This document shows positions 45,973-51,467 of a stretch of 64,000 nt of DNA, piece after piece. The DNA is from Candidatus Methanomethylicia archaeon (lineage in GTDB: Archaea > Thermoproteota > Methanomethylicia > Culexarchaeales > Culexarchaeaceae): NCBI GenBank assembly GCA_038727515.1, contig JAVYVS010000004.1, positions 1 through 64,000 on the forward strand, read 5' to 3'. How positions within the stretch are numbered: position 1 is the first letter of the stretch; each line of letters opens with the position of its first letter. The position numbers were made by a program, and so were the translations under genes. The notes under the pieces were generated by a model. The model ran no database searches. It saw only the letters and a list, made by a program, of their open reading frames with translations, and was not told the origin of the DNA.

Positions 45973-46028
45973 ACCTATATATAGGTAAACCTTTATATAG
46001 TTTTCCTATCAATTATTGTTTGATATTT

Positions 46029-46925
46029 ATGAATGTTAGATTGATTATGGGTATTGGAGTTTTAGGGTCTATAATAACATTAGTTATGTGTATTCAAATT
46101 GTATCTAATGTGTTTATAAGTCTTGGTTTATCTTTCCCAAGGGATGTTATAAGTATACCTGAACCTTATAGGTCTATGGTGAGTTTACATGCAACTTTAA
46201 TAGCTTTCCTCTTAGCTTTCATTTTAGCTTCAGTTAAACTTCATATTTGGTATTCATCATTATGTGTATTTTCATCTGCAATAATATCTTTGGTGGCTAT
46301 ATTTTCACAGAATATTTACGGTTTAATTCTACCATCAATAATAGTGTTTCCATTGGCCATTGGCTTCATACTATCCATATCTTCAAGTTTAATTATGTTT
46401 TTCAGAGTTGAGAAACCCAAGAAAATCTTTAGTTTAACTCCAATTGAGATTTCTGTTACCGCTATTCTTAGTGCTTTACAAGCTTTTCTCACAGCTTCTG
46501 TTGGCGCTATTTTCCCATCACCCACTGGAGGCTACACACATATTGGTGATACAATAACCTTTATAGCTGCCTTCCTATTTGGAGCTAAGATTAGTACTTT
46601 AACTGGAGTTATTGGTAGTCTTGTTGCAGACTTTTACTTGGCGTATCCAAGGTGGTATGTATCTATTTTGGCTCATGGAGCTGAAGGTTTAATTGCAGGT
46701 TTATCTTATCGTAGGAGTCTTCCAATTAAAATTATCTTATCGATTATAGCTGGGTTTTCCATGGCTTTCACATACTTTTACGTTAATATTTTCATTAAGG
46801 GTTATGCTCCAGCCCTCATATCCTTTATGAGGGATTTCTTTGGTCAAGCATTAATCTCCCTACTGTTAGCTTTAATATTGTATAAACCTCTTGAGAAAGC
46901 TTTGAAAATTGGTATGCGTGGTTAA
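46029..46925 (+). CDS. ECF transporter S component with an N-terminal membrane extension
   Basis: C-terminal ~165 aa: PTGGYTHIGD, GSLVADFYLAY, HGAEGLIAG; about four extra TM helices at the N-terminus. Confidence 0.75.
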   Translation: MNVRLIMGIGVLGSIITLVMCIQIVSNVFISLGLSFPRDVISIPEPYRSMVSLHATLIAFLLAFILASVKLHIWYSSLCVFSSAIISLVAIFSQNIYGLILPSIIVFPLAIGFILSISSSLIMFFRVEKPKKIFSLTPIEISVTAILSALQAFLTASVGAIFPSPTGGYTHIGDTITFIAAFLFGAKISTLTGVIGSLVADFYLAYPRWYVSILAHGAEGLIAGLSYRRSLPIKIILSIIAGFSMAFTYFYVNIFIKGYAPALISFMRDFFGQALISLLLALILYKPLEKALKIGMRG

Positions 46926-48304
46926 ATTATGGATTTACCCTTTTCAGTTAATTTATAATATTCTCTAATTCTACCCATGGTTTTAATGGTTCTACTTTTA
47001 TCAACATATCCCTCCCTCAATAATTCCTTTATGTGTTGGTATAGTGTAGGCATTTTCAATTCCACTCCATAATAATCCTTTAATTTCCTCCAAATACCAT
47101 AACCATAATTTTCCCCTTCACTTAGTATCCTCATTATCATTAGCTTTGTATCTCCAATGGTTTTTCCATCCATATCCTTTATTAATCCACCAATTTTCGG
47201 ACTTTGAACTGCTATTTCCCTTAGGATTTTGGGGTCTTTTAATCCACTTCCAGTTATTATGCATACAACCCTACTATTCCTTTCAATACTTCCACTTCTA
47301 ACTAGGTTTTCTAGTGCAGCTATAGTTAAGCTTGCAGCTGGTTCTGCAAGTATACCTTCATATCTAGCTAGATTCTTCAAGGCTCTTATAGCTTCAGCTT
47401 CTTCTATTGCCACTGCTAAGCCATTGGTTTCCCTTATGGCTTTTAATGCTGCTAATCCATATCTAGGTTTTGGATGATTTAAATCGTGTATGCTTGTTTC
47501 AGCAAAATCCACTTCCACATCCTTTGAATTTTCTTCGAAGGCTTTAACTATGGGTGAACATCCCTTTGGTTGTACTCCAACTATCTTTGGCTTCTCTTTT
47601 AATATTCCAAGTTTAATGGCTTCCATTAAAGCTTTATATGTACTATACGCTAATCCTCCAATCCCCATGGGGAGTATTATGTATTCTGGTGGAGGATTTA
47701 ATTGTAGGATTAACTCCCAAATAATTGTCTTTTTCGCTTCATTTATTAATGGATCGTATTCCACTTCATGTATTTTAACCCCTTTTACAAGTTCAGTTTT
47801 CGGTATTACTTCTGCTCCATATGCAATTATTTGATATAGTTTTCCAATATCCATGTTTCTATCGAAGTAAACCTTTAATTTTATTGATGCTTTAGCCATA
47901 TAGGCTGCTAGTGAAGAACTTAAATTACCCTTTGAATATATTGTTAACTCTCTGATTTTCATGTCTAGAATTTTTGATGTGAATAATGCTGAAGATCTAT
48001 CTAGATAGGACCCTGTTGGTTCCATGGTTTCATCTTTAAACCATAAGTCTAAACCTAAATCTAATCCAATCCTCCTACTGTGATGGATGAATGTATTTCC
48101 TTCACCTAAACTAATCCTATAATTCTCATTTACATGGGGGAGGATTTTTGAAAACTTCCATATACCACTACAACCCTCTGAAAATTCCATTTTACTTAAA
48201 TCTTTCAATTGGAATGTTAATCCACATCCACATTTAATGCAGTATTTAAGGTTTATATCATAATCATATTCTTCCCCACATCCAGTACATTTCAACTTTT
48301 CCAT
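46922..48304 (-). CDS. Threonine-synthase-like (PLP fold II) protein fused to a C-terminal PadR-like winged helix; PLP lysine replaced
   Basis: CxxC..CxxC zinc ribbon, SLGEGNT, PTGSYLDR, GVQPKGC, AEPAAS, ITGSGLKD; then NYGYGIW..PTLYQHIKEL..YYKLTEKG. Start taken at MEKLKC. Confidence 0.85.
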   Translation of the reverse strand: MEKLKCTGCGEEYDYDINLKYCIKCGCGLTFQLKDLSKMEFSEGCSGIWKFSKILPHVNENYRISLGEGNTFIHHSRRIGLDLGLDLWFKDETMEPTGSYLDRSSALFTSKILDMKIRELTIYSKGNLSSSLAAYMAKASIKLKVYFDRNMDIGKLYQIIAYGAEVIPKTELVKGVKIHEVEYDPLINEAKKTIIWELILQLNPPPEYIILPMGIGGLAYSTYKALMEAIKLGILKEKPKIVGVQPKGCSPIVKAFEENSKDVEVDFAETSIHDLNHPKPRYGLAALKAIRETNGLAVAIEEAEAIRALKNLARYEGILAEPAASLTIAALENLVRSGSIERNSRVVCIITGSGLKDPKILREIAVQSPKIGGLIKDMDGKTIGDTKLMIMRILSEGENYGYGIWRKLKDYYGVELKMPTLYQHIKELLREGYVDKSRTIKTMGRIREYYKLTEKGKSII

Positions 48305-48345
48305 AACTATCCCAAATCCCCAAATAATATTTATCATTTAAATTG

Positions 48346-49405
48346 TTAAATTTTGGTTAATGTATTCTTTAGTATTGGATCTAGAATTTCATATTCACCT
48401 CTTCTAATTCTAGCAATATAACCTCACATAATCAAACTGTCTATGTACCTCTTTAACTCTGAATCGTATACTACAGTTTTCTTTTTCCTCTCAAAATAAT
48501 CCTTTATTTCACTCCAACTATTATATCCTTTAGCTATGCTTCAACGATATGTAGATAGTTTCTTGAGAAGTGCGTTAATTCTTCTATAACTATTTTTGAA
48601 GCTTTTTCCATAGTTTCATCAATGATTTCTTTATTTAGAATACCCATTTTAACGGCTTTTGCTCCAAGTTCATTCAGCCATCCAACAACTCCATCCAATT
48701 TCTCAACGGCATAAATAATTAAATCTTCATCTACCTCCATACCATATTCTGAAAAACCCTTTTTCAAGAAGTTTATTGAGGTATCCCTTGAAAATCTTTC
48801 AAGTCTAATTTCCTCTAAATGCCTTCCATATAATGGTGAATTTGGTTGGTTTATGCGTAGTAGATCATATAGCAATCCAGCTTCTGAACCTGTTAAAATA
48901 AATGAAATATTTCTACAATAATCATAGCAGTGGGCTAGAATTTGAGTTACTACTTCACTAAGATTCCCCCCTAAAATTCTGTGCTTCGTCTATGGCTATC
49001 ACCATTCCCCCAAATCATTAATTCTATCTAGAATTGATTGTAAATCAACTCTCTCCCTTATATCCCATGATAATGATATTTCAAAATCAAAAATTCTTAC
49101 ACCATTTATATGTTTCAACAAATTGGATAATATACCCTTATAAAATTTAGAGTTTAATTGTGTAATTACGTTTGAGAACATTGAATATAGGGATTTATAA
49201 GATTTAATTGGTCCTCTAACATCCATTATTGAGTATGGCATTCCACATTCATTTAAAAATACTTTTAGAACAGATGTTTTCCCAATCCTCCTCATTCCCG
49301 TTAGTAGTATTATCGGTTTCCCATAGCCTTCTTTAATTCTTCTAATTCTCTTTCTCTATCGTATAAGTCCTTCCTATTTTCCTTTGGTCTTTCATCAAAT
49401 AACAT
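48346..49405 (-). pseudogene. Archaeal ATPase (AAA/STAND, ATPase_2) pseudogene
   Basis: MLFDERPK..LYDRERE, GMRRIGKTS (Walker A), IAIDEAQ (Walker B), ILTGSE, YEILDP; about four frameshifts and an in-frame stop. Confidence 0.9.
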
Positions 49406-50635: not shown

Positions 50636-50715
50636 GTTTCATCTAGAATTTCAGATATTCAAATTTAATTAATAAGTGAGGATTTATATGTGAATGATAA
50701 TTGAATATTTATGGT

Positions 50716-51467
50716 ATGACCTTTGAAACTCTTTCAAGAGAAGAGAAGTTGAGAATATTGAAAGCTTTAGAAGAAGATTTAGAGTTTAGGTATGCAGTGG
50801 CAGGTTTAATTGGGATCTCCGAAATATTAAGGAGATTAGATAGATTTGAAGAAGGACAAAATAAATTATGGGAAAACCAAAAAAGGTTATGGGAAGCTCA
50901 AAACAAATTATGGGAAAATCAAAACAAACTGTGGGAGGAGGTTAAAAGTCTAAGAGAAGGCCAGAATAAACTATGGGAGGAAATCAAAAACCTAAGAGAA
51001 GGCCAAAATAAGCTGTGGGAAGAGGTTAGAGAACTGAGGGTTAATTATAGGATATTGGAAAAGAGTTTAAATGCTTTAAGAGAGTCCATGATAAGTGGTT
51101 TTAGTGAGTTAAGTAAATTTGCAGGTTTAACCTTTGAAGAATTTGTTAGAAAATTCTTAACTAACTATTTAAGAAGCATGGGGGTTATATCAGAGAATGT
51201 TGAATTTAAACCCATAAATATAGATGGAGAGGAAATAAACATATTCCTTGAAGACCCCTCATAGTTGGAGAAGTAACATCTTATAGTGAAAGTCTACAAG
51301 AATTTGAGAAACTTATTAGAAAGATTGAGATTATTAAACAGAAGTATAAGAGGGAGCCTAAGAAATACCTCATAATATTAACGGTTAAAGAAGATGTGGT
51401 TGATGTCCTTAGGAAATCCTGTGAAGAAATGGATATAGAGCTTATTATAGGTAAAGTGGTAAAGTAA
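50716..51467 (+). pseudogene. Coiled-coil repeat + nuclease-like (DUF3782-type) gene with one frameshift
   Basis: LEEDLEFRYAVAGLIG, QNKLWE heptads. One extra C in the run at 51255-51258 restores ...EDPLIVGEVTSY...IELIIGKVVK*. Confidence 0.75.
50857..51030 (+). repeat. Degenerate 21/42-bp tandem repeats encoding QNKLWE heptads
   Basis: Six units of consensus CAAAAYAARYTRTGGGA. Confidence 0.85.

Follow-up and report, generated by a model that had tools for sequence, protein, structure and literature searches.

A threonine synthase relative without its Schiff-base lysine, fused to a PadR winged helix, as a candidate vitamin B6 regulator in Archaea

What role is left to a protein that is built like threonine synthase (ThrC), lacks the lysine through which such enzymes hold their cofactor, and ends in a DNA-binding domain? 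The question is raised by a gene in a 64,000-nucleotide stretch of DNA from a Candidatus Methanomethylicia archaeon (assembly GCA_038727515.1, contig JAVYVS010000004.1, positions 1 to 64,000; the window, below). The gene lies on the minus strand at 46,922–48,304 and encodes 460 aa plus stop; its frame, Pfam, its homologues and an AlphaFold2 (AF2) model give, in order, a zinc (Zn) ribbon, a ThrC-like domain without the lysine, a linker and a PadR-type winged helix-turn-helix (wHTH). A first, sequence-only reading had proposed that the enzyme fold is reused here as a ligand sensor, a proposal that the comparisons below support. We think it probable that this fusion protein is a ThrC-derived one-component regulator that responds to vitamin B6 and controls the adjacent gene, which encodes an S-component of an energy-coupling factor (ECF) transporter; it would then be an archaeal functional analogue of the bacterial regulator PdxR.

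Lysine loss and the added winged helix

It is established for fold-type II enzymes that use pyridoxal 5'-phosphate (PLP) that the Schiff-base lysine is both cofactor anchor and catalytic base. The fusion protein has a domain of this fold (residues 64–352; 47,249–48,115; Pfam PALP at 5e-53, Foldseek matches to ThrC), in which the motif PTGSYLDR (residues 96–103; 47,996–48,019) places Leu101, encoded by CTA at 48,002–48,004, opposite the K of PTGSFKDR when HMMER aligns it to the solved ThrCs 2zsj and 6cgq. The sequence-only reading had picked out this leucine codon together with a drift of the substrate loop ASTGN to YSKGN, and both observations hold: HMMER aligns the two loops at 47,924–47,938, where G126 and N127 are invariant among homologues and K125 is not conserved. 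The same alignments set MGIGGL (47,651–47,668) opposite GNAGN, the PLP-phosphate loop of ThrC, with G214 and G216 invariant and position 217 a glycine in 103 of 114 homologues, and identify TGSGLKD (47,234–47,254) as a motif common to ThrC (TGnGLKDP), with T351, G352, G354, L355 and K356 invariant. All of these features are read on the minus strand, as are those of the fusion gene that follow.

The intact frame running on into a PadR-like wHTH, also described in that reading, is borne out by Pfam, which finds PALP (64–352) and PadR (PF03551; 390–458, 2.4e-14, 53.5 bits against a gathering cut-off of 27) in the protein and neither GntR nor Aminotran_1_2. The wHTH spans residues 385–460 (46,925–47,152) and matches solved PadR/LmrR domains in the PDB at 1e-7. 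At the other end, the Zn ribbon CxxC...CxxC (C6, C9, C22, C25; 48,230–48,289) is drawn from conservation in the homologue alignment, where C22 and C25 are invariant and C6 and C9 at least 90% conserved. The open frame extends over 46,922–48,337, and an in-frame ATG at 48,337 adds 11 aa that homologues do not have; the start at 48,304 is the likely one because close homologues begin at MEKLKC. A structure prediction, which the sequence-only reading had called for, gives the same picture. The AF2 model, built from a 60-sequence alignment (mean predicted local distance difference test score, pLDDT, 87.8), has the layout of N-terminal zinc ribbon, ThrC-like body, linker (residues 372–380 before the wHTH, of low confidence and disordered) and terminal wHTH, and among PDB entries it comes closest to threonine synthases, at a template-modelling (TM) score of 0.82 normalised to target (Foldseek; 6nmx).

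Is the leucine a peculiarity of one genome? A search of a 5.8-billion-protein collection returns more than 100 proteins with the PALP+PadR architecture, all from archaeal metagenome-assembled genomes (MAGs) of Methanomethylicia, Nitrososphaeria, Bathyarchaeia, Thermoprotei and Brockarchaeota. Across 114 full-length matches, the Schiff-base column holds L in 63, I in 21, M in 10, R in nine, F in five and other non-lysine residues in six; lysine occurs in none. In 20 more fusion genes, from as many genomes and about 13 GTDB families, the column reads R (11), L (4), I (2) and M, T or V (one each), again with no lysine, and the same is true of six other fused members (0/6; three of PRK05638 type and three linked to pdxST). 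Three members of 433–436 aa that pass the NCBIfam model NF004170 read PTGSFRDR. In total, more than 150 fused homologues were inspected, and lysine is absent from this position in all of them. Since homologues at 81–98% identity share the leucine and no fused homologue carries a lysine, Leu101 is no sequencing slip. Among the findings that the sequence-only reading had named as speaking against a sensor are fused homologues that keep the lysine and a second lysine that takes over its site with enzyme activity retained; the homologues show neither a kept lysine nor a replacement. K125, considered as a compensating lysine, was rejected on its lack of conservation (Thr in 71 of the 114 homologues), and the invariant lysines K90, K155 and K356 sit in KDE, GK and GLKD motifs that HMMER also aligns to solved ThrCs, so that no substitute specific to the family is found. 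Judged by conservation, the remaining cofactor pocket is under strong constraint, its invariant residues being D102, R103, G126, N127, G214, G216, E321, T351, G352, G354, L355 and K356.

A pocket conserved this strongly could also be taken to mean that the protein is still an enzyme, dependent on PLP or independent of it, which works through K125 (or, in a subfamily with arginine in the column, through that Arg) and for which the wHTH is an accessory or autoregulatory part. The lysine that the window protein has in its nearby YSKGN loop fits such a reading, as do the name "threonine synthase" that databases give to these proteins and the passing NF004170 scores of some members. We consider it very improbable: besides the variability of K125, no lysine is invariant in the fusion family alone, and hydrophobic L, I, M, V or F cannot stand in for a Schiff-base lysine. 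The source genome (1.586 Mb in 12 contigs, 93.6% complete) has seven PALP genes, of which four are Zn-ribbon ThrC paralogues with the lysine intact (PTGSFKDR twice, PTGSLKDR and PTGTFKAR), each passing a ThrC NCBIfam cut-off; the sequence-only reading had asked whether a separate thrC is present, and there are thus four candidates. The conserved neighbours of the fusion, moreover, are transport and B6 genes, not genes of the threonine pathway. The fusion protein itself scores under every ThrC cut-off (TIGR00260, 115.7 against 167.1; NF006050, 200.9 against 303; NF004170, 267.2 against 421), and because it also lacks the lysine we conclude from its sequence that it is most probably not a functional ThrC. 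What it shares with the ThrC families (NF006050, TIGR00260, NF004170/PRK05638) is the fold, at about 30% identity, the Zn ribbon of archaeal ThrCs, which the genome's lysine-bearing paralogues also have, and the type of dimer interface in its predicted homodimer; where it departs from them is in the missing Schiff-base lysine, the altered ASTGN and GNAGN loops and the added wHTH.

We return to the reading of the protein as a regulator, for which the ThrC-like domain is presumed to act as ligand sensor and dimerisation module. The predicted homodimer scores 0.85 in ipSAE (an interface confidence score) against 0.00 for the best control, with runs agreeing in at least 77% of contacts and a partner pLDDT of at least 84; this passes a mark that 20 of 30 proteins solved as pairs also pass, as does 1 of 23 solved as single chains, although the pass may reflect likeness and not new information because ThrC dimers are among the solved structures. 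The predicted interface (residues 46–168, 310–319 and 355–378) lies wholly in the ThrC-like domain and includes 93–98 beside the PLP motif. Canonical PadR proteins are about 110–180 aa long and have an N-terminal wHTH followed by C-terminal helices that provide both dimerisation and the ligand pocket. Like PadR and LmrR, the fusion protein has 75 residues, here its C-terminal ones, that match Pfam PadR and solved wHTHs, and, as for PadR, its candidate operator (next section) is a palindrome. Unlike PadR, it carries the wHTH at the extreme C-terminus without the usual dimerisation helices, only a six-residue helix (454–459 in the AF2 secondary structure) following the wing before the protein ends, and both the predicted dimerisation and, presumably, the ligand site come from an enzyme-derived module of 380 aa. 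With its wHTH at the C-terminus and no dimerisation helix it is an atypical PadR, and from the model we infer that the enzyme-derived body provides dimerisation and ligand site in the place of those helices.

The neighbouring transporter gene and its palindrome

If the fusion protein is a regulator, which gene does it regulate? Genome context points to the S-component gene (46,020–46,925, plus strand), which is convergent with the fusion gene and overlaps it by 4 nt; it starts at TTG 46,020 or, more likely, at ATG 46,029, and its assignment to the HmpT/PdxU2 type, with an N-terminal membrane extension, draws on PF07155 (6e-17, 62.6 bits), on 4HZU_S as its sole PDB match and on its kept adjacency to the fusion. 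A homologous S-component adjoins the fusion in 16 of 21 loci, divergently in eight, co-directionally downstream in five, convergently in the window and its closest relative (L008), and on the opposite strand 2.9 kb away in one; in a second sample it is a neighbour in 12 of 20 genomes. A Pfam tally of 120 neighbouring open reading frames (ORFs) puts PF07155 first with 13, ahead of the AIR-synthase (AIRS) family with four, PALP with three and homoserine dehydrogenase with two. On this evidence, the S-component gene is the likely target of the fusion regulator.

A candidate operator stands in front of it. The perfect 12-bp palindrome CCTATATATAGG (45,974–45,985) directly follows the stop of the upstream epimerase gene and lies about 45 nt before ATG 46,029. 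At 7 nt downstream of it, and about 29 nt upstream of the same ATG, stands TTTATATA (45,993–46,000, plus strand), which a 14-site alignment suggests is the TATA box of the S-component gene. The case for the palindrome is its single genomic copy and its recurrence at other loci. The exact sequence occurs once in the 1.586-Mb genome (0.19 copies are expected from base composition). With one mismatch allowed, it turns up at 9 of the other 19 fusion loci that were scanned, in every case either in the interval from the fusion to the S gene or just ahead of the fusion, against one match in 741 kb of control loci around non-fusion ThrC genes. Three of 20 later fusion loci have exact copies, and in one Thorarchaeota genome a second fusion/S-component pair has an exact copy too. 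Oriented by their target genes, 14 sites (the window's and those of 13 other loci) share the layout CCTATATATAGG-N7-TTATATAT, and the palindrome therefore abuts the TFB-recognition element (BRE) and TATA box of the target promoter; at divergent loci its position suggests that it also spans the place where transcription of the regulator gene is expected to begin. The Arg subfamily of fusions (PTNS[FY]RDR, from Bathyarchaeia) has no CCTATATATAGG and carries instead a different inverted repeat, TAGTATAG-N6-CTATACTA, before the S gene. Such a switch is what one expects where a regulator and its operator vary together. We infer that the fusion protein binds CCTATATATAGG.

Could the palindrome be a part of the promoter that has nothing to do with the fusion protein? 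Its core, TATATATA, resembles an archaeal TATA box, and a copy with one mismatch sits at the promoter of an unrelated exosome operon in the same genome. By this account the fusion protein would still be a regulator that binds elsewhere, and CCTATATATAGG would be a promoter or architectural, TATA-like upstream element read by general factors. We regard this as quite unlikely, given that the flanking CC/GG is kept at 14 sites, each 7 nt from a separate TATA box, that the element is unique in the genome and nearly absent from the control loci, that it stays with the fusion gene or its target in each of three arrangements of the genes, and that the Arg subfamily has its different repeat at the equivalent place.

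A few further occurrences and absences complete the survey of CCTATATATAGG. The three one-mismatch copies in the source genome (contig C1 at 57,236 and C2 at 227,392, both in coding sequence; C5 at 49,958, at the exosome/SBDS operon promoter) were rejected as regulon members. Four genomes (G041, G073, G067 and G105) have no palindrome, and the single one in G202 is inside an ORF and was set aside. In a Thorarchaeota genome (G001, contig C14 at 60,949; L103:1501–1512) a third exact palindrome, with the same N7-TATA layout, lies between genes for an HTH_10 regulator and a GNAT acetyltransferase, with an Asp/Glu racemase gene nearby; the three genes may be further regulon members. Another exact copy (G003, contig C7 at 32,394; L097:1501–1512) is about 200 nt upstream of another PALP-family gene.

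Vitamin B6 as the putative signal

The transporter suggests what the ligand might be. A profile of 14 fusion-linked S-components matches 4HZU chain S over its full length at E=5e-27, the next S-component following at 0.009. This chain is HmpT/PdxU2 of Lactobacillus brevis, for which mass spectrometry of the purified complex gave pyridoxamine as the bound substrate (PMC4860826), and the three B6 transporters characterised in prokaryotes include PdxU and PdxU2/HmpT (PMC9997740). Within the family, the window's S-component has Phe in the NIxQ motif column where most members carry Asn, an Asn that, from motif spacing alone, may correspond to Asn140 of HmpT. Its N-terminal membrane extension of about 130 aa (46,020–46,430) is common only to the closest relative, L008.

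The gene content of the genomes points the same way. The source genome, at 93.6% completeness, has no PdxS and no real PdxT; it does have ThiC, and so it appears to need imported B6 and not hydroxymethylpyrimidine (HMP). None of five other genomes with fusion/S pairs has PdxS. Among 201 Thermoproteota genomes, evenly drawn and at least 85% complete, and with the fusion scored as a full-length match in a frame of at least about 430 aa, PdxS is found in 95, the fusion in 55 and both in eight; PdxS is thus present in 8 of 55 fusion-bearing genomes and in 87 of 146 others, as counts that are not phylogenetically independent. Three of the eight genomes with both (G083, G059 and G121, of one genus) have the fusion divergent from pdxS-pdxT (PF01680 at 7e-102, PF01174 at 1e-52), and in the short region between them stands the exact palindrome in its N7-TATA layout. 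The candidate operator stands before genes of presumed B6 uptake in some archaea and, in this one genus, before genes of B6 synthesis.

A sensor of this kind need not sense B6. The ThrC-like domain could be non-catalytic and bind an amino acid or threonine-pathway intermediate (O-phosphohomoserine or threonine), which it might read as a PLP-amino-acid adduct, or else the thiamine precursor HMP phosphate (HMP-P), with the S-component as the importer of the compound. The domain does derive from ThrC, and it retains the substrate-loop GN as well as D102 and R103, and three Arg-subfamily loci stand beside a real thrC and a homoserine dehydrogenase gene. For HMP-P it can be said that the first prediction for HmpT was transport of HMP (PMC4860826), that HMP-P resembles pyridoxamine phosphate (PMP), and that a ThiL/HypE-like AIRS protein recurs beside the S-component. 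We nevertheless hold a ligand other than B6 to be unlikely: three genomes have this palindrome at pdxS-pdxT, fusion and PdxS are anticorrelated, the source genome with its ThiC and without PdxS/T appears to need B6 and not HMP, pyridoxamine is the only experimentally assigned substrate in the S-component family (PMC4860826), and the thrC/hom neighbourhood is limited to a single subfamily. A B6 vitamer thus appears to be the most plausible ligand.

How would a B6-responsive regulator built in this way compare with known ones? Bacterial PdxR regulons take in pdxST, pdxK and pdxU. In its apo form PdxR occupies the region shared by pdxR and pdxST, where it switches pdxST on and its own gene off, PLP serving as anti-activator; Archaea are reported to have no MocR regulators (PMC5320631). 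The fusion protein resembles PdxR (MocR subfamily of GntR regulators) in being a putative one-component regulator with a PLP-enzyme fold as presumed sensor, in its apparent B6 targets (the PdxU2-like S-component and pdxST, by genome context and shared palindrome only) and in being often divergent from its likely target with the candidate operator in the shared intergenic region. The sequence-only reading had drawn an analogy to MocR/GabR, and this analogy extends further than was proposed, because the apparent targets, a PdxU2-like transporter and pdxST, are those of bacterial PdxR. In PdxR, however, the wHTH is N-terminal and of GntR type, and the sensor is an aminotransferase-like domain of fold-type I with its PLP lysine retained, whereas the archaeal family has a C-terminal PadR wHTH and a fold-type II ThrC domain without the lysine; the two are unrelated in sequence and not homologous as regulators. 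A second comparison is ThiR, which is reportedly an archaeal thiamine regulator with a sensor derived from ThiN: like the fusion, it is said to join a disabled biosynthetic-enzyme domain to a DNA-binding domain and to control vitamin synthesis and transporter genes, and it differs in enzyme fold, DNA-binding domain and vitamin. As a regulator, the fusion family would belong among the enzyme-fold one-component regulators, a known kind. In the literature searched we found no paper describing the family and no described archaeal regulator for a B6-sensing role, nor is one from Archaea named in a survey from 2023 of how PLP is made and salvaged (PMC9997740).

These parts can be put together into a putative mechanism. 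The ThrC-like domain, which cannot form an internal aldimine because Leu replaces the Schiff-base Lys, would keep its cofactor pocket and dimerise like ThrC, and the dimer would present two C-terminal PadR winged helices to the palindrome abutting the BRE/TATA of the S gene. A phosphorylated B6 vitamer (PLP, or PMP or pyridoxine phosphate, PNP) would bind non-covalently in the old active site and change DNA binding. In ThrC itself, the small domain closes on substrate binding (Thermus structures 1uim and 1v7c); a closure of this type could pass via the linker to both wHTHs and alter occupancy of the palindrome. B6 uptake would then be turned down when the cofactor is plentiful, the direction of regulation being our supposition. 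A site just upstream of the BRE would suit either of two modes, the holo-protein occluding transcription factor B (TFB) or the apo-protein activating in the manner of PdxR, and each would lower uptake or synthesis under ample B6. Elsewhere among archaea, this regulator and operator would control pdxS-pdxT and the regulator's own gene. To the stronger statement, that Archaea have here their first family of B6-responsive transcription factors, pseudoenzymes derived from ThrC that bind PLP or another vitamer non-covalently, use the operator CCTATATATAGG to control uptake or pdxST and are convergent with PdxR, we assign about an even chance.

Several observations weigh against a B6 regulator acting at this palindrome. 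Ligand binding usually takes PadR regulators off the DNA, and a release of this style would have the wrong sign for feedback unless the protein activates or uses a co-repressor. Upstream of the window's fusion gene there is no palindrome even at three mismatches, so that an autoregulatory site was not found there, and a second PdxU2-like S-component gene in the genome (contig C1, about 501 kb) has no palindrome either. The core of the palindrome is TATA-like and could be a promoter element instead of an operator. The substrate of the S-component is assigned by homology only, since HmpT was first predicted for HMP and PF07155 members vary in substrate. Some fusion genes adjoin thrC/hom (L021, L023 and L024) or gatE (L131, L132 and L134), and the latter three have no S-component in the stretch examined. 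To the non-independence of the phyletic counts we add that the three cases linked to pdxST all come from a single genus and that pdxS is near the fusion in 1 of the 19 loci of the first sample; pdxS was for this reason rejected as a general neighbour of the fusion, the link to pdxST having appeared only in the phylum-wide scan.

If the B6 reading is true, the family would close a gap in what is known of B6 regulation in Archaea, and it comes with a concrete candidate operator and regulon. It is a common one, being present in 55 of the 201 sampled Thermoproteota genomes and also in Asgard and Thermoplasmata MAGs. It would further be a second, independent recruitment of a PLP-enzyme fold as PLP sensor, this time of fold-type II and with the Schiff-base lysine deleted instead of used. 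The combination of fusion and S-component seems to mark genomes without PdxS, which aids the prediction of B6 auxotrophy and cross-feeding in uncultured archaea.

Annotation of the family and further neighbours

Members of the fusion family without the lysine are widely named "threonine synthase" (through NF004170, and in one case by passing the TIGR00260 thrC model), which inflates predicted threonine biosynthesis capacity. Three such fusions (L114:1057–2367, L116:637–1938 and L130:2433–3836), which read PTGSFRDR or PTNSFRDR, pass "threonine synthase" equivalog cut-offs, with NF004170 scores of 699 and 459 bits against 421 and a TIGR00260 score of 190.8 against 167.1, so that automatic pipelines will give them the wrong name. 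NF004170 itself appears to be built on lysine-less fusions; it has no match above cut-off in any of 14 control genomes, Sulfolobus acidocaldarius included. The four lysine-bearing paralogues of the source genome (L001, L002, L003 and L004) vary in their own substrate-loop motif (FSTGN, ASTGN, DSSGN and PSAGN), and L004 is the one with PTGTFKAR; as their motifs differ, some of the four probably have other activities. In the gatE-linked loci (L131, L132 and L134) the fusion is of a PTGSFRDR subgroup and lies directly downstream of, and overlapping, gatE, which encodes subunit E of the Glu-tRNA(Gln) amidotransferase.

The AIRS-superfamily protein (HypE/ThiL-like) recurs beside PdxU2-like S-components in several lineages. 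Its sites are L107 102–1157 (minus strand), L018:10014–11018, L049:10051–11055, L017:3108–4118, L022:6092–7549 and L133:1333–2355. The first of these is in the source genome (contig C1, about 500.1–501.9 kb), where the second S-component gene (1117–1887 of L107, minus strand) is accompanied by an AIRS protein 45% identical to that of Bathyarchaeia. NCBIfam gives only matches below cut-off for the S-component and its AIRS neighbour; one may speculate that the latter could be the missing archaeal B6-vitamer kinase. In Thorarchaeota, a conserved protein of 426–431 aa without Pfam or NCBIfam match is encoded co-directionally downstream of the S gene (L011:5325–6602, L013:5868–7160 and L014:5882–7171).

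Within the window, two short ORFs of 113 and 98 aa (48,534–49,295, minus strand) lie immediately upstream of the fusion gene. The first has a weak match to an archaeal ATPase (PF01637, E=0.008, below the gathering score) and the second has no Pfam match; they may be remnants of a broken gene. L008 has an intact 424-aa ATPase gene (AAA_14/DUF4143) on the opposite side of its fusion/S pair. Farther on, at 50,701–51,264 on the plus strand, the window encodes a 187-aa protein of near-identical repeats (QNKLWE / GQNKLWEE) that has the look of a coiled coil and belongs to no real Pfam family.

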